Below are positions 50,618 through 62,627 of a stretch of DNA of 64,000 nucleotides, piece by piece. The notes below the pieces were generated by a model. That model was not told the DNA's origin. It did no database searches and saw only the letters and a list, made by a program, of their open reading frames with translations. Source of the stretch: an uncultured cyanobacterium (GTDB lineage: Bacteria > Cyanobacteriota > Cyanobacteriia > Cyanobacteriales > CAWUOF01); the NCBI GenBank assembly GCA_963744145.1, contig CAVUSO010000001.1:4416001-4480000 (forward strand), written 5' to 3'. Position 1 is the stretch's first letter, and each line of letters begins with the position of its first letter. A program made the translations under genes and the position numbers.

Positions 50618-50740
50618 TAGACCTCTTGCAAAAGTCATGTTGATCAATTTACTGGACAGGCAAGATGCCTGTCCCACAACCAAAAAAACTCTTGTGGGAC
50701 AGGCATCTTGCCTGTCCTAGTTATTTTTGCAAGAAATCTA
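50618..50740. mobile_element. MITE-like element (123 bp)
   Basis: TIR TAGACCTCTTGCAAAA / TTTTGCAAGAAATCTA with internal REP palindromes; a 33/34 copy of the left end lies at 31851-31884. Confidence 0.7.
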
Positions 50741-51559: not shown

Positions 51560-52395
51560 TTGATCGCGAACAGAAAGGAAACATCAACAGAACCCTTCGA
51601 CAGGCTCAGAGCAAGTTTTGTCCAGATTTGTAGGGGCAAAGCATTTCGGCAGATCAATAATTGCTGAGAGCGAGAGAACTATAACCGAAATGCTTTGCCC
51701 AGCCATTGATGAATCAAATCGATCGCGGTTGAGAACGAACCGCAGAGAGGGTCCAAGAATCTGAAAGAGTGGTTAAGTGTAGGGGCGAAGCATTCGGGCG
51801 ATAATTGAACGCTTAAACGAGTAATATTAGACCCGAATGCTTCGCCCTTCTTCGCCGATATCCCCCAAAATATTCTTAACTGAACTGTATTGGATCTGTT
51901 GGTTGCATAAAGTGAGGGCAAAGCATTTCGGTCCTATTCTTCTGAGTTTAACCTATCATTTGTTCGCCGAAATGCTTTGCCCCTACAGAAATTGGCATAT
52001 ATATAGTTGATCTGTTGGCAATACGGTTCGGTTAAGTGTAGGGGCGTTCGCGCAAGCGTGCCGGAGGCATAGCATTCGGGCGATAATTGAACGCTTAAAC
52101 TTTACCCTGAGCGTAGTCGAAGGGGAGTAATATTAGACCCGAATGCTTCGCCCTTCTTCGCCGATATCCCCCAAAATATTCTTAACTGAACTGTATTGGG
52201 GGTGAAGCATTCGGGCGACAGTTGAACAATCAAACTTTACCCTGAGCCTTGCCCTGAGCCTTGCCCTGAGTGTAGTCGAAGGGGTAGTCGAAGGGGTAGT
52301 CGAAGGGGTAGTCGAAGGGCAGTAATATTAGATCCGAATGCTTCACCCTCTTCTGCGCCGAGATTCTCAAAAATATCCTTAACTGAACCATATTG
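51560..52395. repeat. Dense cluster of REP/MITE-like repeats with nested mini-insertions
   Basis: Several GGGCGAAGCATTCGGG...CCCGAATGCTTCGCCC units ending CTTAACTGAACTGTATTG; a complete unit with both ends at about 52019-52198. Confidence 0.85.
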
Positions 52396-52517
52396 AATTA
52401 TAGCAGGTTTTTAACCTTTCTGCTCTGGGAAGTATATCACTGTGCGATCGCTTTTTGGTTAGATGAGTTGGAGGTGCGATCGCACAATTTTTTCCATCAA
52501 TGCGGCCAGATTTCCTC

Positions 52518-54182
52518 TTACTTTAGATAGGATTTTGCCCAACTATATTGATTTGGATCTTTATTGAGAAGATACTCGACCACTTCTCTACGTTTATCTT
52601 TATCTTTGGTCATTCTCACAATTCTTTCAATTTCATCATCAGTATCATCAGCTCCACGTTCGATCGCCAATTTAAACCAATAATCACCATCCTCATATTT
52701 ACTGCGATCGTAACAAATTGCTCCCCTTAGAGTATAGGGTTGATGATTATCAGGTTGACATTCCATTGCTGATGCTGCACATTTCTCGGCTTGATCTAGG
52801 TGATTAAGATCCCGAAATGCTGCACCTCTAGTTACCCAAAGAGCTGATTTGAGATCAGGTTCTTGTAATTTGTTCCAATTCAAATTTTCGGTAACTTTTA
52901 GAGCTTGTTCAGGATGATCCGCCTTACGCCAGTTACTACTTGCACTGGGTAAATTCCATCTGTTTCCAGTTCGTTGATATTCTTTTTCGTAAAATATTGC
53001 TTCTAATCTGTAGTAAGCGATCGCGATCTTTCCATGTCGAGAAAGACGACCTTCTTCCATTAATTGAATAACTTGTTTTGGGTCGAGTCGTTCTTCTCGC
53101 TCAAGTTTGAGCATAATTTCATAAAATGGGTCGATCGCTAATTGACCGAGAATCTGATATTTAGTTTTTAATGCTCGGAAGTGGATTTGTTTGGCTAGCT
53201 CTACTGTTTCCATCAGTCCCTCTTCTGACAACCACTGCATATCGTTCTCCGATATTTCAAAAATTGTAAGCCTCAGCAGAATTAGGTATAGAGGACTGGC
53301 AGGATCTGAGCTTTGATATTGAGTAGCTTTATATTTATCTTTAAGTTTCGCAAAGAATTTTCTGTCCTGATGTTCTTGATTAATTTCAATTAAATTGCTA
53401 AAATTTTGCTGTTCCAACCATTCACATTCCCTCCGATCTAGTTCTTCTTCTAAGTTGAGTTTCTTCAAAATAGGATATAGGGGACTAGAAATCGATGTAG
53501 CGGAGGTAGAATCAACCTGATATTTCGACTTTAGGTCTGAGAATTCAAGTTCTTTTTTCCTTTCATCCTCTTGTTGCCAATGAATTTTCAGCGTTTCTTC
53601 AAAATTGAATTCTAAAAGCCATTTAGTTTCTGAGTCCGATAATTCTGTTCTTGTATCAAGCTTTTTCAGAATTGAATAAAGAGGCTCTTCAGGAAACTGG
53701 TTTAAATGTTTGGTGGCTTTATATTTAACTTTTAATTTTGAGAAATTTAAGATATTTTGAATTAAAGTAATTGTGTCAATCAGCTCATAATTATTTAGCA
53801 GTTCAAGTTCTGAATCTTTAAGAGTACATCCAATATCTAGCTTCCCAAGTATTGAATAGACTGGGCTGGAGATGGGCAGCTCTAATTTTGGTGGAATGTG
53901 GTATTTAGTTCGTAGTTGCAGCAATTCAGTTTCTAGCCTTTGTTTGTCTTCTGCTTGGTATTGCTGTAAAAAAATAATCTCAACTGTTCGAGAAAGACGA
54001 TTCTCTGTTAACCATTCAAATTCTGGAGTTGTGACTTGAATACCCAGGTCTGCTTTTCTCAGGATCAGATATAGGAAACTATCAGAGCCATGACTATGCT
54101 GATCTACTTGATATTTCTTTTTAAGAGCAGCAAAGTGCCTTTTCTGTAGTTCTTTATTATCCATTCCTGATGTCATATTCAT
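52518..54182 (-). CDS. Hypothetical protein with six repeats of about 55-65 aa and C-terminal TPRs
   Basis: Recurrent F..LK.KY...LY.IL.KL...WL motif; TRGAAFRDL and TLRGAICYD TPR-like helices. Start uncertain (54188, 54182 or 54176). Confidence 0.75.
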   Translation of the reverse strand: MNMTSGMDNKELQKRHFAALKKKYQVDQHSHGSDSFLYLILRKADLGIQVTTPEFEWLTENRLSRTVEIIFLQQYQAEDKQRLETELLQLRTKYHIPPKLELPISSPVYSILGKLDIGCTLKDSELELLNNYELIDTITLIQNILNFSKLKVKYKATKHLNQFPEEPLYSILKKLDTRTELSDSETKWLLEFNFEETLKIHWQQEDERKKELEFSDLKSKYQVDSTSATSISSPLYPILKKLNLEEELDRRECEWLEQQNFSNLIEINQEHQDRKFFAKLKDKYKATQYQSSDPASPLYLILLRLTIFEISENDMQWLSEEGLMETVELAKQIHFRALKTKYQILGQLAIDPFYEIMLKLEREERLDPKQVIQLMEEGRLSRHGKIAIAYYRLEAIFYEKEYQRTGNRWNLPSASSNWRKADHPEQALKVTENLNWNKLQEPDLKSALWVTRGAAFRDLNHLDQAEKCAASAMECQPDNHQPYTLRGAICYDRSKYEDGDYWFKLAIERGADDTDDEIERIVRMTKDKDKRREVVEYLLNKDPNQYSWAKSYLK

Positions 54183-54192
54183 TGTCAAAATT

Positions 54193-54228
54193 GGTTCTAT
54201 TCAACTAATTTCCCTAGCGAGTAGGGAG
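54193..54228 (-). CRISPR. Degenerate terminal CRISPR repeat
   Basis: 34/36 match to the array repeat; 506 bp from the main array. Confidence 0.9.
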
Positions 54229-54302
54229 CGGCAATTTGAAATAGTAAAGGCGGAACTCAAATTAATAACTGCATCATAAGTTCTGGAAAAATTGTGCTAT
54301 TT

Positions 54303-54326
54303 AGCCCCTACTACTGGGCTTTTTTT
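54303..54326 (+). terminator. Rho-independent terminator inside the 506-bp insert
   Basis: AGCCC-loop-GGGCT followed by a T-run. Confidence 0.6.
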
Positions 54327-54734
54327 ATGCTTATTAATTGGTGGCAATTAAGTTAAGCCTGTTGTACAAGTTTGAGCTTTAAAAGGGTGTCTTTGGAGTT
54401 TTCCAAAAGTTGAAGAGTTAGAGCTTTTGTCGCTACGGAAGTCTCTGGTTTTTTAGTTTCTATTTGCGGAGTCGAGTGGGAGTCGAAGCCTTCTCGATTT
54501 CCGCCATTAATAGAAAACTTCGACTAGGTTTGTCTTAACTTATTTCTAAGTAAGCACTTTGTTGTAACCCTTCGGCTGGGGGAATGTTTTTATTCCTAGC
54601 GCGTCAGGATAGGGACACACTGCGGGTGGCGGGTGGTAGTAAGTGCCCCCCAAAGTTAGATTACTCGAAATCTACTCTTTTGTCAACAGTCACGTCTCAC
54701 ATTAATAGAAAACTTCCACTAATTTTGTCTTAAC

Positions 54735-57700
54735 GTTTCCATTCAACTAATTTCCCTAGCGAGTAGGGAGAGCAAGACTATCTGGAACAACGGATTAAGA
54801 TGATGCTTGTTTCCATTCAACTAATTTCCCTAGCGAGTAGGGAGTATAAAGGTGCCCCTGGCACCAAGCGCCTTTTGTGGTGCTAGTTTCCATTCAACTA
54901 ATTTCCCTAGCGAGTAGGGAGAATAACCCAATAACATTACGAACAGGACAAAACAAGTTTCCATTCAACTAATTTCCCTAGCGAGTAGGGAGCAGAAATC
55001 GGATGTAGAGAAAATATTCATAGACCCGGATGGTTTCCATTCAACTAATTTCCCTAGCGAGTAGGGAGCTTCTGTGTGATTGTCATTTATCTGGTGATCG
55101 CACTCGCGTTTCCATTCAACTAATTTCCCTAGCGAGTAGGGAGGAGAGCCACTTTTATTAGTAATATATTGAGAATAAGCTGTTTCCATTCAACTAATTT
55201 CCCTAGCGAGTAGGGAGATTGGAAAGCATCTTACAGAAGGCGGTGCAGCAGTAGTTTCCATTCAACTAATTTCCCTAGCGAGTAGGGAGACTACTTCCAA
55301 AGAATACGAATCCGGAAGGGTTCTCCTTGTTTCCATTCAACTAATTTCCCTAGCGAGTAGGGAGCACTGCTTACGGTCAGGGGGGAGATTTAATTCTCCC
55401 GGTTTCCATTCAACTAATTTCCCTAGCGAGTAGGGAGCCAGAATCACCGACCGCGAAAATATTGAAATCGGCGATAAGTTTCCATTCAACTAATTTCCCT
55501 AGCGAGTAGGGAGACGGATTATTCAACGGCGGTAGACGAAGAGCTTTTAGAAAGTTTCCATTCAACTAATTTCCCTAGCGAGTAGGGAGGTGCAACAACA
55601 ATCCGCACAGGTGCAACCAGCACCAACGTTTCCATTCAACTAATTTCCCTAGCGAGTAGGGAGTTGAAAAACGACCAGTTTATCGTTGTTGATTAAACTT
55701 GTTTCCATTCAACTAATTTCCCTAGCGAGTAGGGAGTCTAAAAACTGCTTATTACAACAGTTTTGTTTCAAAGTTTCCATTCAACTAATTTCCCTAGCGA
55801 GTAGGGAGTCTGCAATTACTGACAGTGGAATCGGTAAAAACTTGTTTCCATTCAACTAATTTCCCTAGCGAGTAGGGAGCTAAAAAGGTTAAATCGGCTC
55901 GAAAACAATTGGCCAAAGAGGTTTCCATTCAACTAATTTCCCTAGCGAGTAGGGAGTCAATTTGTTACGTCGCATTAGCGTCAGAGCATTTATCCGTTTC
56001 CATTCAACTAATTTCCCTAGCGAGTAGGGAGACTTTTCTGTCCAAAAGGCTTGCGTCAGCCTTAATTAAAAGTTTCCATTCAACTAATTTCCCTAGCGAG
56101 TAGGGAGTGTAGAAAATTTTGGGACTACCCCATGAGCCAAGTTTCCATTCAACTAATTTCCCTAGCGAGTAGGGAGTAGTTGGTGATTTTGGTTTAACTC
56201 CGACTAGATTAATAGTCGTTTCCATTCAACTAATTTCCCTAGCGAGTAGGGAGCCGTCTTTATGGCGGTCTGACTCAGGCGTTTATCCGGACGTTTCCAT
56301 TCAACTAATTTCCCTAGCGAGTAGGGAGTCCAGCTATAGTTTCGATTCTAGATTGGCCCTCACCCAGGTTTCCATTCAACTAATTTCCCTAGCGAGTAGG
56401 GAGGATCGCAAAAACTGTTAATCCGGTTTCCGTTCGGGATGGTTTCCATTCAACTAATTTCCCTAGCGAGTAGGGAGTTATCTCAAGGATTATATTGATC
56501 GGATCATTAAGAAGTTTCCATTCAACTAATTTCCCTAGCGAGTAGGGAGGAAATTACTGAACCTAGATGCAGAGTTACAGGAGTTAGAGAGTTTCCATTC
56601 AACTAATTTCCCTAGCGAGTAGGGAGAATAGAGATGCCTATCCTCAAAGATAAAGATAACTATCGTTTCCATTCAACTAATTTCCCTAGCGAGTAGGGAG
56701 TACACAAACTTTAGAAGAATATATTAAGACTTGTAGTTTCCATTCAACTAATTTCCCTAGCGAGTAGGGAGTGGTAAATACAAAGGTGCAGATGAATTAG
56801 GATTTAAGTTTCCATTCAACTAATTTCCCTAGCGAGTAGGGAGTGCATTAACAGGTGCGTCAATGTTCTCTATGAATAAATCAAGTTTCCATTCAACTAA
56901 TTTCCCTAGCGAGTAGGGAGTCTAAGTCAGTTATTAAGTATCCTATCTAGAAATGCGTTTCCATTCAACTAATTTCCCTAGCGAGTAGGGAGCTGTAACC
57001 GCATTGATTATACGATACATAGTAATTCTACCGTTTCCATTCAACTAATTTCCCTAGCGAGTAGGGAGTTTGTTATGTCTATATCTAAGTCTTTCTCAAA
57101 TCAAAGTTTCCATTCAACTAATTTCCCTAGCGAGTAGGGAGTAGTCTTATGTTGTAATATCTGTTTACTATCTGTAGTTGTTTCCATTCAACTAATTTCC
57201 CTAGCGAGTAGGGAGCTCGGTATGGCTAAATGATTCAATTAATAATTCAGTGTTTCCATTCAACTAATTTCCCTAGCGAGTAGGGAGTTCGCAGCAAGCC
57301 CAATCCTGATTGGGATGAAGAAATGTTTCCATTCAACTAATTTCCCTAGCGAGTAGGGAGTCTTACTCATTATTACTTCCTCTTCTTATCTTTCTTTAGT
57401 TTCCATTCAACTAATTTCCCTAGCGAGTAGGGAGAATCATTACAGAAATTATATGATTCTTTAGATATTAGTTTCCATTCAACTAATTTCCCTAGCGAGT
57501 AGGGAGCTTAACTTCAAAACCACGGGAGATAGGATATCAAGAGTTTCCATTCAACTAATTTCCCTAGCGAGTAGGGAGTTAAGGTTGGAATACATTGTTG
57601 TAGATAATCTATAACTTGTTTCCATTCAACTAATTTCCCTAGCGAGTAGGGAGATTCTAAAAGATAATTTTAGGTATTTTACTGTAGATGTGTTTCCATT

Positions 57701-59344
57701 CAACTAATTTCCCTAGCGAGTAGGGAGACTCTAAAGCCATATTGCGATCGGCATATTTAAAATTGTTTCCATTCAACTAATTTCCCTAGCGAGTAGGGAG
57801 ATTATTACTGAATCTGCAACAGTCAATGTTACTAGCGTTTCCATTCAACTAATTTCCCTAGCGAGTAGGGAGCATGGAGTGGATTCTAGTCTGATACATA
57901 TCCAACCAGGTTTCCATTCAACTAATTTCCCTAGCGAGTAGGGAGTTGAATACCGTAGTCCCAAACATTTTACTGGCAAAAGTTTCCATTCAACTAATTT
58001 CCCTAGCGAGTAGGGAGTCCTACCGCCTATCCAGTTTTCTATAATACTTATTCTCGTTTCCATTCAACTAATTTCCCTAGCGAGTAGGGAGGTAAAAAGA
58101 TAGTAATGGAATGGGATGTAGAAAAAGATGTTTCCATTCAACTAATTTCCCTAGCGAGTAGGGAGAGATTTTGACATGACTAACTCGGCTGTAACTCCAG
58201 CACGTTTCCATTCAACTAATTTCCCTAGCGAGTAGGGAGCACAGGCTGGGATAATTGGAATAACCAGGGATATAATTAGTTTCCATTCAACTAATTTCCC
58301 TAGCGAGTAGGGAGGAATGGAAAGGCACAGTAGATAAAATTGAATATTATAAGTTTCCATTCAACTAATTTCCCTAGCGAGTAGGGAGACGGAGATTAGA
58401 ACCATGAAACCAATGAACTACGAAGTTTCCATTCAACTAATTTCCCTAGCGAGTAGGGAGAAGCCAACAAGGACAGTCAATCCCTCTTAGCGGATGAGTT
58501 TCCATTCAACTAATTTCCCTAGCGAGTAGGGAGTTCCAACAGTTATCAGAAAATGAATGGTATTTATATGTTTCCATTCAACTAATTTCCCTAGCGAGTA
58601 GGGAGAAGATTACTTTACTAACGATAGAAAAAACCATGAATAGTTTCCATTCAACTAATTTCCCTAGCGAGTAGGGAGATTTTACTCGACATCTGGGATC
58701 TGGCTAAGGATCGACAAGTTTCCATTCAACTAATTTCCCTAGCGAGTAGGGAGTAGAAGTAGATATTGATATTCAAACAGTATGGAATAGTTTCCATTCA
58801 ACTAATTTCCCTAGCGAGTAGGGAGCTAGGAAAAGAATACTGGATCATGCAAGAAAGAACAGAAGTTTCCATTCAACTAATTTCCCTAGCGAGTAGGGAG
58901 TAGTGGATATGGTTATACATCTTTAAGTTTGTTTACGTTTCCATTCAACTAATTTCCCTAGCGAGTAGGGAGTTACTCAATCTACATTACCTACTACTAC
59001 TGGTACTCAATGTTTCCATTCAACTAATTTCCCTAGCGAGTAGGGAGTACTACAGTAAAAGGATCAGTAGTAGCATCATCTTTTAAGTTTCCATTCAACT
59101 AATTTCCCTAGCGAGTAGGGAGTCTTTTAGATAATTGTGATAAAAGTAATTATAAAGAAGTAGTTTCCATTCAACTAATTTCCCTAGCGAGTAGGGAGTG
59201 TAGAAAATTGTAATGATGTAGAAGAAGATTTATTTGTTTCCATTCAACTAATTTCCCTAGCGAGTAGGGAGTATCGTTCTAAGTTTAAGAGGTACCACGA
59301 TTGAGATCGTTTCCATTCAACTAATTTCCCTAGCGAGTAGGGAG
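54735..59344 (-). CRISPR. CRISPR array, 63 repeats / 62 spacers by manual count
   Basis: 36-bp repeat CTCCCTACTCGCTAGGGAAATTAGTTGAATGGAAAC (minus strand); spacers about 33-41 bp. Orientation inferred from the leader next to cas2 and the degenerate distal repeat. Confidence 0.98.
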
Positions 59345-59544: not shown

Positions 59545-59826
59545 TTAAATGACTAAAGACCCAGGAAACTGGGTGACAGGAAGCCCAACTCCCCAGATTT
59601 CCACTTGTCCCAGGGTATGTCTGGACAATGGGTAAAAACGCAGATTGTCTTCCGTTAAATTTACTCTTTCCTTAAGTCTCTGACACATTTCGTTATACTT
59701 AGTTGGTGTCAGCACAGACTCAAAGACACTGTACTGTACTCTTTTCCCGTAACCCTCTAATAAATCAGAGACTTTTTGACGACGCTTGTCGCTAGGAATA
59801 TCATAAACCACTACATAAAATAGCAT
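59545..59826 (-). CDS. cas2: CRISPR endoribonuclease Cas2
   Basis: YVVVYDI...YGKRVQYSVFE. Confidence 0.96.
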   Translation of the reverse strand: MLFYVVVYDIPSDKRRQKVSDLLEGYGKRVQYSVFESVLTPTKYNEMCQRLKERVNLTEDNLRFYPLSRHTLGQVEIWGVGLPVTQFPGSLVI

Positions 59827-60818
59827 TAGCGAATCCGATAAGGTTCATAAACCTGAATAGGGTTGTAAACAAACTGCTTAAAAGCTTTCACTTGCTGAGT
59901 CAGCAAATCCCATTTTGGCTGTTTATCTCCTGAATTAGTCTGTACTTCTTCTTCCATCCTTTGCACAAAAGCTTTCAGATATTTAGAACGTCCCGTATCA
60001 TTCAGATAACATCCACCATCCCGATAAACAAAATCATCCAATACCGATAGCATCCGACGATTTGCTAAATATAATACCAGAGAATCCACTATGGGGGTGC
60101 GAAATTCTTCGATCAAATCAGAAGCTAAGGATGCGTGTTTTTCACTTGGTTGATGAAGACAGCCAAAATAAGGATCTAGTCCCTGAATCTCGATTAAACT
60201 AAGTAAGTGATTCCAGAGAATTTGATAACCAAAACTTAGCATCGCATTCACTGGATTTCCCGGAGGTTGTCGCGATCGCCCCGCAAAGACAAAATCTTCA
60301 TGATCAAAACATTCTCCCAACCCTGAGAAATATTGAACTGCACCAGCACCTTCAAAACCCATTAACTGCTGAATATTATCGGCATTTCCAGCTTTTTCAA
60401 GTAAATGGGCTAAACTCTGAATCGCCATATCCAGACTTGCTGAATGCTGACTACGTTGCTGACGCTTCAGGAAAACGCGACTATTTTTGAGCTTTCCCTG
60501 GACAATTTTTCTAGCAACAATTAAACGGTCAATTTCTGACAATTGCTGTTGATAGCGAGCCAGTTGTCGATAGCCACGTTCAATTGGAATAATCCTACCA
60601 TAACAGAATCCCATCCGTGACAAATAAGCGATCGCAATATTGCGCCATAAACAAGTTCTAATTAACTGGGTGGTAACTTGAGACTTGCCAAAAATCAGAA
60701 TTTGGTCCAATAATGGTAACTGCATCTTTCCCAGAATATTTTCGCCTTTTTTAATCACCACAGATTCATGGTCTTGGCAAACATAACAACCTTGTTGAGA
60801 AACATAAAGAGTCCGCAT
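59826..60818 (-). CDS. cas1: CRISPR integrase Cas1 (no RT fusion)
   Basis: TLYVSQQG, GFEGAGA, PVNAMLSFGY, LASDLIEEFR. Confidence 0.96.
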   Translation of the reverse strand: MRTLYVSQQGCYVCQDHESVVIKKGENILGKMQLPLLDQILIFGKSQVTTQLIRTCLWRNIAIAYLSRMGFCYGRIIPIERGYRQLARYQQQLSEIDRLIVARKIVQGKLKNSRVFLKRQQRSQHSASLDMAIQSLAHLLEKAGNADNIQQLMGFEGAGAVQYFSGLGECFDHEDFVFAGRSRQPPGNPVNAMLSFGYQILWNHLLSLIEIQGLDPYFGCLHQPSEKHASLASDLIEEFRTPIVDSLVLYLANRRMLSVLDDFVYRDGGCYLNDTGRSKYLKAFVQRMEEEVQTNSGDKQPKWDLLTQQVKAFKQFVYNPIQVYEPYRIR

Positions 60819-61148: not shown

Positions 61149-62627
61149 TTAGGGTTGGTAAGAAGTTATCGCTTCTTTTAATTCTTCATGTACTCGCGAC
61201 ATAAGACTCGCTTCCTTAAGAGATGTAAACTCTTGTTCAGATACAAAATTAAGACAGCCTAAAACCCTGGCTTCCCAATTTTTTTGATTTTCAGTTTTCC
61301 AAGCTTGAAAAACCGCTTTTTTTTCCAATCCTCGCAACCGATGAAATTGCTCATTGCGAATTTTGGCAGCCTCATCCCAAACAACCGCGATATGAGGATC
61401 TGATTGCCAATGAGGTTGAGCTTGTCGCAGTAATTCATAAAGAGAGGTACTATAAAGTCCCAATCTCGACTCTTTCTGAAACCGATTTCTCATTCCTTCT
61501 GATAAATTACTTAAGTAATTAGGAAACTGATTTTTAATCGATAATTTTAGACAAGGAGAACCTCGATGAATTTCAATGTGATTCGAGTAATAATGTTCTG
61601 CCCACTCAGCAATTAATCCTTCCACAGAGCGAAAACTATGAAATAAAGCTTCAACAGTATTACTTTGCTGAAACCTGATGACTGCTAAGTAAGCAGCTTC
61701 ATAAGCTGTCCACCACCATTGACGCGATCGCACTTTTGCTTCATTATCTAAAAGAGTAGCAAAATCCTGAAAGTTGCCAATATTCCACTGAATTGCCGCG
61801 TCTAGGAGTAACTGAATTCGTCTAATAAGTTGACCATTTTCATCATCAGAGTTAGCCGTCTTATAATAACCCCTAAGCAGACGACTCACTGCTTCATAAT
61901 TATACTGTCGTAATAAAGATAGTGCCTCTTGCTGTTTCCGATCCCAGAGATAATTTGTTCCCTGGAAAGGAGGATAATATTCAGAGGGAAAACCTTGACT
62001 ATTTGTTACCTCATCTTGTTTAAAATCATAAAACAGAGAATCTTCTCCAAAGCGACTCAATGCCGTTACCCGCGATGCTTCTGAAGACTGTCCGACACCC
62101 CCTTTCAAACACAACAAAATAGGAGTATCTTCAGAAATTTCTGAAGCAATTTGTCGCCAGACTTGTTTCCACCAACGAAACATTTCTTCAAAATTAGACG
62201 GATTATACCCCTCAGCACCTTGCAAAATAATCTGAGTAGGAATGTGATAGTTACTTTCAATCCACCGCTGAATAATTTGGGCTGAGTAGAGGGTGTCTTT
62301 ATCTCGCTGTTTAACTGTTTCTAACTGATCTGTTGCTACTAAATAAACTTTTTGTAATTGTTGATGCCGATCTTGTAACAATTTCCCTAAAATAATCGGC
62401 TTGAGAGCATTTTGGTACTCTTCCCAGTTTTCCAGTAAATATTTTGTGAGAAATCGAAAATCACTGTTCTCAAACCCTAATTCAGCTTGAACTAAGGCTT
62501 GTTCGCTGATACTATTACTATCGGGAGAGCGGTCATTTCCTAAATTGTACCATTGTTCAGAAGTAACAGCAAAAGCTAGATCCCGAGTACCAATGGTAGC
62601 AACTAAAATAGATTTTGGTGTAGCCAT
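61149..62627 (-). CDS. CARF-HEPN ancillary ribonuclease (Csx1/Csm6-like)
   Basis: N-terminal ILVATIGTRD, LCLKGG (CARF-like); RNEQFH = R-x4-H. Confidence 0.7.
   Translation of the reverse strand: MATPKSILVATIGTRDLAFAVTSEQWYNLGNDRSPDSNSISEQALVQAELGFENSDFRFLTKYLLENWEEYQNALKPIILGKLLQDRHQQLQKVYLVATDQLETVKQRDKDTLYSAQIIQRWIESNYHIPTQIILQGAEGYNPSNFEEMFRWWKQVWRQIASEISEDTPILLCLKGGVGQSSEASRVTALSRFGEDSLFYDFKQDEVTNSQGFPSEYYPPFQGTNYLWDRKQQEALSLLRQYNYEAVSRLLRGYYKTANSDDENGQLIRRIQLLLDAAIQWNIGNFQDFATLLDNEAKVRSRQWWWTAYEAAYLAVIRFQQSNTVEALFHSFRSVEGLIAEWAEHYYSNHIEIHRGSPCLKLSIKNQFPNYLSNLSEGMRNRFQKESRLGLYSTSLYELLRQAQPHWQSDPHIAVVWDEAAKIRNEQFHRLRGLEKKAVFQAWKTENQKNWEARVLGCLNFVSEQEFTSLKEASLMSRVHEELKEAITSYQP

Follow-up and report, generated by a model that had tools for sequence, protein, structure and literature searches.

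The window analysed here is a stretch of 64,000 nucleotides from the genome of an uncultured cyanobacterium. Towards its end lies a CRISPR locus with the following features:

54193-54228, minus strand: repeat deviating at two positions of the handle, immediately ahead of the gene for a 556-aa protein; a lineage-specific junction.
54735-54770, minus strand: last perfect repeat, the 3' part of which is the crRNA handle for the terminal spacer S described below.
54735-59344, minus strand: type III-B CRISPR array with 63 perfect 36-nt repeats, transcribed towards lower coordinates.
59545-60818: cas2 and cas1; the array comes after cas2, cas1, csx18 and the CARF-HEPN gene.
61149-62627, minus strand: CARF-HEPN (Csx1/Csm6-like) effector, a gene of the III-B locus.

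The genes cas10/cmr2, cmr3, cmr4 and a cmr6-like gene lie near the array, just outside the window, and the system is therefore type III-B; no cas5/7/8 or cas6 was recognised among the genes listed at the locus. The 62 ordinary spacers of the array measure 33-41 nt (mean 37.8). Homologous repeats terminate in the 13-nt tag given for Synechocystis CRISPR3 in the accessible text of PMC3575380, which makes the minus strand the transcribed strand and 54735 the trailer end; the repeats of the present array deviate from this tag at two positions. Six ordinary spacers (window positions 56701, 57216, 57654, 58166, 58534 and 58826) have matches of 17-25 nt elsewhere in the genome, two of them inside other CRISPR arrays by their coordinates. 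At G000:C1:5814700-5815353, far from any array, a leader-like stretch resembling the end of the present array's leader stands with a single degenerate repeat directly before a short reading frame. A TnpB-family gene (G000:C1:4489385-4490941) is found 2.4 kb past cas10, adjoining a divergent 395-aa gene.

On the trailer side, the 556-aa protein (window positions 52518-54188) has internal repeats and a TPR-like end by reading of its sequence, gave no Pfam, NCBIfam or PADLOC match, and has homologs in 26 of 200 genomes of the order. A comparable repeat (≤14 mismatches) was absent from seven of eight fetched loci with such homologs, the eighth having one repeat match at the 14-mismatch limit. Dense REP/MITE-like palindromic repeats occupy intergenic DNA at 50654-50717 and 51629-52396.

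Between the last perfect repeat and the degenerate repeat at 54193-54228 lie 506 bp in place of the ordinary 33-41 nt, a gap that the initial annotation had reported and that we confirmed. The minus strand does contain the TTGACA (54686-54681) and TAATCT (54663-54658) hexamers, 17 bp apart, that had been read as a promoter. A consensus promoter scanner found 0 promoters, because this -10 matches at only 3 of 6 positions, and it is solely the homologs that speak for the candidate promoter. The 35-bp direct repeat (54700-54734 and 54505-54539) matches at 32 of 35 positions, where the best of 200 shuffles gave 25; its first copy, hereafter S, is spacer-length and flush with the last repeat, which the earlier reading had overlooked. 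The proposed plus-strand terminator (54303-54328) was called by terminator prediction as well, and the proposed stop-terminated plus-strand frame, RQFEIVKAELKLITAS*, is present at 54229-54279, without a start codon. The GC-rich foldable tract is there, but in the present copy it folds no better than shuffles (z -0.71). The longer RNA of this copy reaches a folding z of -1.8 against shuffles, and most homologs of the module fold better than theirs (z -1.7 to -4.9).

The unit itself had been taken as a 506-bp spacer closed by a terminal repeat, and this did not hold: the conserved part stops near 54354. The '506-bp spacer' is an accident of this genome, and the natural unit has ~380 bp (54354-54734). 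The 125 bp outside it and the 'terminal' repeat are lineage-specific, the last 75 bp of the interval and the repeat at 54193 being local to this genome; in run X3 the sequence from 54239 runs into other DNA, in frame across the 30 letters displayed. The stretch is a heritable trailer module of cyanobacterial III-B loci, in which the last repeat, S, a promoter and a structured RNA with a second copy of S (S') are conserved as a unit. Its parts and immediate surroundings in this genome are:

54700-54734, minus strand: S, fixed terminal spacer of 35 nt, flush with the repeat, a putative self-directed guide.
54658-54686, minus strand: sigma70-type promoter TTGACA-17-TAATCT, with a predicted start near 54651.
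54612-54651, minus strand: P1, 5' hairpin of the predicted RNA; loop motif 54627-54632 complementary to 54501-54506.
54561-54582, minus strand: P2, small hairpin or pseudoknot, with a G-C/C-G swap in genus g210.
54538-54551, minus strand: hairpin capped by GAAA, immediately preceding S' (helix 7; paired cells 81%).
54505-54539, minus strand: S', second copy of S, 32/35, with differences at positions 12, 13 and 18.
54481-54525, minus strand: P3, helix of 12-13 bp in which the 3' half of S' (54513-54525) pairs with the arm 54481-54495.
54354-54480, minus strand: conserved A-rich distal part of the module, not directly followed by a degenerate repeat here.
54303-54328, plus strand: intrinsic terminator on the far side of the module and directed into it, at the same place in genus g33, a metagenome lineage and G772.
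54229-54279, plus strand: 3' end of a truncated convergent frame, outside the conserved module.

One of the two readings first offered for the interval was an over-long acquisition from a phage or plasmid. Captured DNA of this kind, or a small transposon inserted in the array, would agree with its position between two repeats in this genome and with the gene end and terminator on one side. However, no match was found in plasmids, phages or viral contigs (a 15-mer of the stretch gave 29 matches in this search, none of which extends), neither TGT...ACA ends nor a short target duplication were seen by eye, and the unit is single-copy and occupies the same array position in many genomes with differing other spacers. 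We regard a captured-DNA origin as largely refuted and give it only the slightest chance. Three objections had also been anticipated, namely a multicopy genomic repeat, an assembly artefact and a want of conservation beside arrays. Both blastn and a profile of 20 homologs find the stretch to be single-copy, which rules out a multicopy repeat or MITE. An assembly artefact is excluded, since run X1 has contigs identical to 54306-54626 and the module is also covered in more distant relatives. As to conservation, the module was found behind III-B repeats in other genomes of the order, several filamentous cyanobacteria among them.

Among 400 other genomes of the order, 12 gave a module match, comprising five in g210, six in g33 and a partial one in g226 that consists of S plus promoter only; all 11 full-length matches begin directly behind a III-B repeat. 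Genus-wide searches found the module in 20 of 79 g33 genomes, 54 of which have the repeat, and in 5 of 12 g210 genomes. A pattern scan of genome collections returned 31 loci, 18 of them titled as cyanobacterial (Microcoleus, Laspinema, Oscillatoria, Hormoscilla and others); three of the 13 non-cyanobacterial loci were inspected, together with L078, and showed no repeat or module. A metagenome scan returned eight loci, five from one further lineage, and contigs of three other runs carry the module at identities up to ~95%. A search of 60 spread relatives gave 0 modules. The class sample of 400 genomes contained one clear module genome, G440, and 13 weak matches (21-53 nt, E 6e-5 to 6e-3), none of which scores as a module by profile, while the phylum sample of 300, queried with the G772 copy, gave three matches, all in g33. 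Beyond the order, the module was not found in these class (400) and phylum (300) samples. In 12 loci fetched at 14-20 kb, cmr-type genes were present in all 12 and cas10 itself in 10 (three size classes).

The edges of the module differ between lineages. In G772 it stands with a solo repeat, ~470 kb from that genome's cas10, and in L046/L082 the handle, S and promoter are kept and the RNA and S' are absent. A degenerate repeat follows right after the conserved part (~54354) in g210, the metagenome lineage and runs X2/X4 and is missing in g33, G772 and this genome; the opposite-strand terminator accompanies most module copies. The module is tandemly duplicated at G440:C1:1414207-1415200 and in G768:C151, the second G440 copy having only the 3' part of S, without repeat or handle. 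In g210 (L035:540-1500, L036:1851-2612 and L037), two small membrane-protein-like frames of ~45 and 91 aa lie between degenerate repeats, upstream of the module in some genomes and downstream in another; the 91-aa frame gave no PADLOC hit. The same genus has a second fixed spacer behind the module, between two degenerate repeats (L035:1894-2010, L037 and L039), which is nearly identical in the three genomes. In the second arrays of L062/L064, a GC-rich hairpin common to both genomes lies directly behind the last repeat and possibly blocks a terminal crRNA.

We then consider the transcript. In 34 distinct copies, for which the -35 was part of the selection filter, TAnnnT lies 17 or 18 bp past TTGACA in 32, with one copy masked and one deleted at this site. 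Immediately past S', a complement of the P1 loop is present in every one of 30 distinct copies; in this genome the pairing has gained one extra base on each side with the match kept. P3 is 93.5% paired, with wobble changes on the minus strand; in the diverged copy of G772, which lies outside the alignment, it is rebuilt as 12 pairs with both sides changed. Folding by covariation across homologs, as had been proposed, found compensatory base changes: in 13 aligned copies, 93% of cells are paired over 41 named pairs and 17 cells are changed on both sides. This covariation exceeds all 500 shuffles and all slid controls, with only 4 pairs carrying double changes, with related rows and with a structure derived from the same sequences.

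The choice of strand draws on several signals. Folding z-scores are alike on both strands, the raw energy of the 5' domain is lower on the antisense strand in 19 of 20 rows, and P2 of the present copy (the stem of which is broken at two pairs on the minus strand) and a long helix in g210 give a better fit to the antisense strand. The promoter, and the way wobble pairs are distributed in P1 and P3, lead us to favour an RNA made from the array strand. RNA contigs from X3 and X4 cover 54318-54637 and 54354-54625, without promoter or S, and are unstranded. DNA run X2 continues across the promoter and S, DNA run X1 also ends at 54626, and the ending of the RNA contigs before the promoter and S is at most a weak hint on the transcript.

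At the gathering score, Rfam 15 assigned no family, returning only sub-threshold matches and one CRISPR repeat, and a tRNA/tmRNA search of the stretch found none. The predicted RNA of ~300 nt, with a long-range loop pairing backed by a matched insertion, would stand outside every Rfam family. Defining motifs of ribozyme, retron, DGR and lox-like elements were not seen by eye, and these readings were set aside. An antisense ATG-CGG-TAG minigene was likewise rejected as the core of the module, the frame being present in 8 of 9 copies tested and missing here and in G772; the motif seems better explained by pairing with the bases after S'. The other reading first offered for the interval, an array-embedded ncRNA or regulatory module with its own promoter, is thus supported, since in several genera III-B repeats are accompanied by the module, its promoter conserved and its RNA showing compensatory changes. 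We hold with high confidence that the module is real and selected.

Another way to view the module is through S. It is conserved in 34 distinct copies although the spacers preceding it turn over, their upstream 30-mers falling into 32 clusters (identical combinations merged). From the start of S to the -35, the distance ranges from 48 to 224 nt with at least five values, and the distance from S to the handle is constant: intact module copies have an intact 5' handle directly before a spacer-length S; in G772 a solo repeat still stands before S, and in L046/L082 the bare handle does. By these spacings, S is tied to the repeat rather than to the promoter.

This arrangement weighs against S and S' being a pair of sites for a protein, such as a WYL-domain regulator, that controls the internal promoter, the RNA being a separate CRISPR accessory RNA. 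Such a pair would explain why S and S' co-vary, as two sites of one locus-specific protein would, and it suits the retention of S without S' in L046/L082. S is moreover an imperfect dyad (4-8 against 22-26) with both sides changed in G772, and 8 of the 12 fetched loci encode a homolog of the 395-aa protein, which we take to be a WYL-domain regulator, its family search having given no hit. However, in every intact copy S adjoins the handle without a gap, at promoter distances that take at least five values; a solo repeat or bare handle stays with S; S' is part of a compensated RNA helix; and four g210 loci lack a 395-aa-type protein in the 14-20 kb fetched. We consider the protein-site pair unlikely.

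S and S' change together. Across lineages they are identical at 28-34 of 34-38 nt. In g210, S has 1-5 differences from its own S' and 8-13 from the S' of most other lineages, L036 excepted, and the g210 copies have lineage-specific 3' ends common to S and S'. In G772, S and S' have acquired new letters in common at positions 7, 18, 20, 23 and 24 and keep mismatches at 6 and 12. The persistence of these mismatches in a tract of common changes argues against gene conversion across the tract, which would erase them.

Gene conversion is what would keep S and S' alike if the module were a decayed second mini-array, with the unit as its promoter and long leader and S as an old self-derived spacer of no function. 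A degenerate repeat does follow the module in g210, the metagenome lineage and X2/X4, the L046 promoter drives a small array, and for Shmakov et al. the mini-arrays of type III loci are degraded repeats (bioRxiv 10.1101/2023.03.03.530964, in the text accessible). The module is, however, not similar to genuine leaders belonging to its repeat family (14 arrays or array segments compared, best z 2.7), and its downstream repeat is truncated or lost in most copies, yet the RNA structure is compensated. With the mismatches at 6 and 12 surviving as well, we find a decayed mini-array quite improbable. We prefer to regard S as a selected self-directed guide, which it probably is.

For such a guide, the plus-strand complement of S' is the only full target in the genome, S' lying 195 nt downstream of S and 110-145 nt inside the predicted transcript. 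A search for trans targets of S in this genome, allowing ≤7 mismatches with every sixth base disregarded, found none; five g33 genomes gave no other match of S, and G515 gave only S itself. The 5' flanks of S' vary (TAA, GTC, GTA, ATA and GGA), without a handle match or a common PAM, from which we expect a target of this kind to be read as non-self and consider targeting by type I unlikely. Targeting of S' DNA by type I-D was rejected in particular, since GTN occurs in several flanks and not in others and a near-full match should be lethal. In the accessible text of PMC3575380, the transcript behind the last repeat of Synechocystis CRISPR3 accumulates at crRNA length, so a second repeat is not needed for a crRNA of S.

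The positions at which S and S' differ may also be informative. Of 24 conservatively counted mismatch events, nine fall at positions 6, 12, 18 or 24 (binomial p 0.005, permutation p 0.017, both for a fixed register); with any register allowed, the period-6 signal has p 0.19, and the lineages are related. With one event later added, eight of 25 fall in 13-17, all of them at 13-16, with two in 19-23 and one in 7-11. In the part of PMC8376896 available, every sixth base is unpaired in T. thermophilus Cmr, and for its cOA production segment 3 matters little and segments 1, 2 and 4 matter much. By analogy, the mismatch positions show a modest resemblance to this tolerance map. Positions 1-5, which belong to the Cas10-activating region, account for four events, one of them a C/T mismatch at position 2 that is fixed in the metagenome lineage. 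RNA structure could be the source of part of the pattern: self-folding of S, together with the engagement of S' in P3, could account for differences at 12-18, and positions 6 and 24 can form a pair. Several copies have, however, lost the hairpin of S itself, and 12 of 62 ordinary spacers form one at least as strong.

The linked effector genes suggest what binding by S would do. Cas10 has the GGDD motif in 10 of 10 linked loci and in this genome, and CARF-HEPN was recovered in 7 of 7 candidates tested. Cmr4 lacks an Asp at the position of P. furiosus Cmr4 D26, the slicer residue (PMC4333402, as far as its accessible text goes), in 7 of 7 sequences, two of which have Glu one position further. 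With a linked Cmr4 lacking the slicer Asp and a Cas10 with GGDD, target binding by Cmr would be predicted from these motifs to yield signalling, not cutting, and the CARF-HEPN gene is likely the output of that signalling. The Cmr4 sequences (L002:6807-7709 and six homologs) span three cyanobacterial III-B sub-lineages and have an invariant GN in addition to the absent slicer Asp.

In this genome, codon 139 of the cmr6-like gene is an in-frame TGA (G000:C1:4480752-4480754, ~750 bp past the window end), where a homolog has Trp; read through, the gene has 585 codons and shares 65% identity with a homolog of 570 aa. In the present copy of the module, the array strand has disturbances in P2 and in the inner stem of P1, and the native closing repeat is gone. 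The module copy and cmr6 of this genome thus look partly decayed, and given the in-frame TGA in cmr6, the locus may be decaying and its own copy perhaps idle.

We consider how a selected guide of this kind might work. In a first step, which we think probable, the last repeat would be processed and S loaded into Cmr as a crRNA, with selection keeping S complementary to the strand opposite S'. Cmr reads RNA, and S has the same sense as S', so that Cmr-S could pair fully only with the opposite strand and the target would be an RNA antisense to the module's RNA. The predicted S duplex has -42.5 kcal/mol with this antisense target, against -16.6 at the best site on the sense RNA. Given the first step, we place at even odds a second, in which such an antisense RNA is the target, is normally kept unavailable and triggers Cas10 signalling on its release. 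Abundant sense RNA would anneal to the antisense target and, with the opposite-strand terminator, keep it away from Cmr-S. Should this balance fail, because host transcription is off, termination is overridden or the sense RNA is lost, Cmr-S would bind the antisense target, cyclic oligoadenylate would be made and the CARF-HEPN RNase would become active. The module would then be a spacer-independent tripwire or addiction circuit of RNA alone, a reading of the whole to which we assign a probability of about one in three.

Several observations bear on this circuit. No antisense transcript was found among the RNA contigs, which are unstranded, and no conserved antisense promoter was seen by eye in the homolog sequences. 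A folding model of the plus strand leaves little of the S target unpaired (mean 0.23). L046/L082, in which neither the RNA nor S' accompanies the handle, S and promoter, count against the circuit, as does the optional nature of the module, with 20 module carriers against 54 repeat carriers among the 79 g33 genomes. A fuller statement of the circuit as a hard-wired, all-RNA guard appears doubtful to us: the last spacer would aim a slicer-dead Cmr at the antisense of its own trailer RNA, and Cas10 signalling would fire without an acquired spacer once the sense RNA disappeared, termination failed or an invader's polymerase copied the structured RNA.

The folding energies also bear on a reading modelled on CreTA, in which the sense RNA is the active, possibly toxic or regulatory, species, and a crRNA of S binds the P3 arm partly, so that slicer-dead Cmr remodels or masks it without Cas10 activation. 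The P3 arm is complementary to ~15-27 of S, covering the Cmr 3' seed, and in G772 it has changed along with S and S'. Such a scheme does not require an antisense transcript, and partial pairing is the principle of CreA in the accessible text of PMC12737573. Yet its best duplex has -16.6 kcal/mol against -42.5 for the antisense target, with S' competing in cis; it leaves unexplained why positions 1-11 and 28-35 of S track S'; and the sense strand has no conserved toxic mini-frame. We judge partial pairing with the sense RNA to be improbable.

How, then, does the module compare with known systems? CreTA, CreR and CrePA are CRISPR-regulated RNA modules of type I (and V-A) loci, as described in the accessible text of PMC12737573. 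Like CreTA/CreR as described there, the present module has a fixed, repeat-derived guide that seems aimed at a neighbouring non-coding unit of its own locus, and an RNA with its own promoter; it travels with the cas locus and can persist with a solo repeat. Unlike CreTA, which is linked to a DNA-reading type I Cascade and to Cas6, the module belongs to an RNA-reading type III-B locus, and its guide is the last spacer of the main array. Whereas CreTA, so far as described there, uses a partial promoter match with a PAM, the module's match is near-complete over 35 nt, lies inside the transcript and has no conserved PAM, and the module seems to lack a conserved mini-frame with SD and rare codons. 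In effector type, target position and partial pairing, it departs from what defines CreTA/CreR.

Regulatory mini-arrays and repeat-like RNAs (Shmakov et al., bioRxiv 10.1101/2023.03.03.530964) resemble it in their extra or degenerate repeats near arrays and in a self-matching spacer. In the accessible part of that survey, type III mini-arrays have no conserved position and no targets and are called degraded, unlike the module, the position and cis match of which are conserved across genera. The 3'-terminal crRNA of Synechocystis PCC 6803 CRISPR2/3 (PMC3575380) is processed without a second repeat, as we propose here for S, and belongs to the same repeat family with a closely related 13-nt tag. 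In contrast, the terminal sequence of the module stays fixed from genus to genus and has its match in an RNA gene downstream, and no such match is described for CRISPR2/3 in the text accessible.

In type I toxin-antitoxin sense/antisense pairs and in toxin-antitoxin defence that senses transcriptional shut-off, a short-lived RNA neutralises an overlapping opposite-strand RNA. The proposed sense RNA would likewise neutralise an opposite-strand RNA, here a putative antisense partner; unlike those pairs, the module has no toxin frame, and its harmful output would be Cas10 signalling. Array-targeting Tn7-like transposons also place foreign-looking DNA in a cyanobacterial array, but the module is without Tn7-type ends or transposase, is always at the trailer end and is flush with the repeat.

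A literature search found no description of this module in the partial texts it covered, subscription journals lying largely outside its scope. CRISPR-derived regulatory RNAs are established for DNA-targeting types, and the broad survey of Shmakov et al., in its accessible part, found none with targets in type III. We conclude that this is a CRISPR-linked regulatory RNA module with a fair chance of representing a new mechanism. With a self-guide that is fixed and co-evolves with its match, and with a new structured RNA in type III-B, CRISPR-derived regulatory RNAs would extend to RNA-targeting, signalling systems, and the 'extraneous' crRNA of the last repeat would have a selected job. The module is a direct test of how a slicer-dead Cmr is used and kept from autoimmunity.
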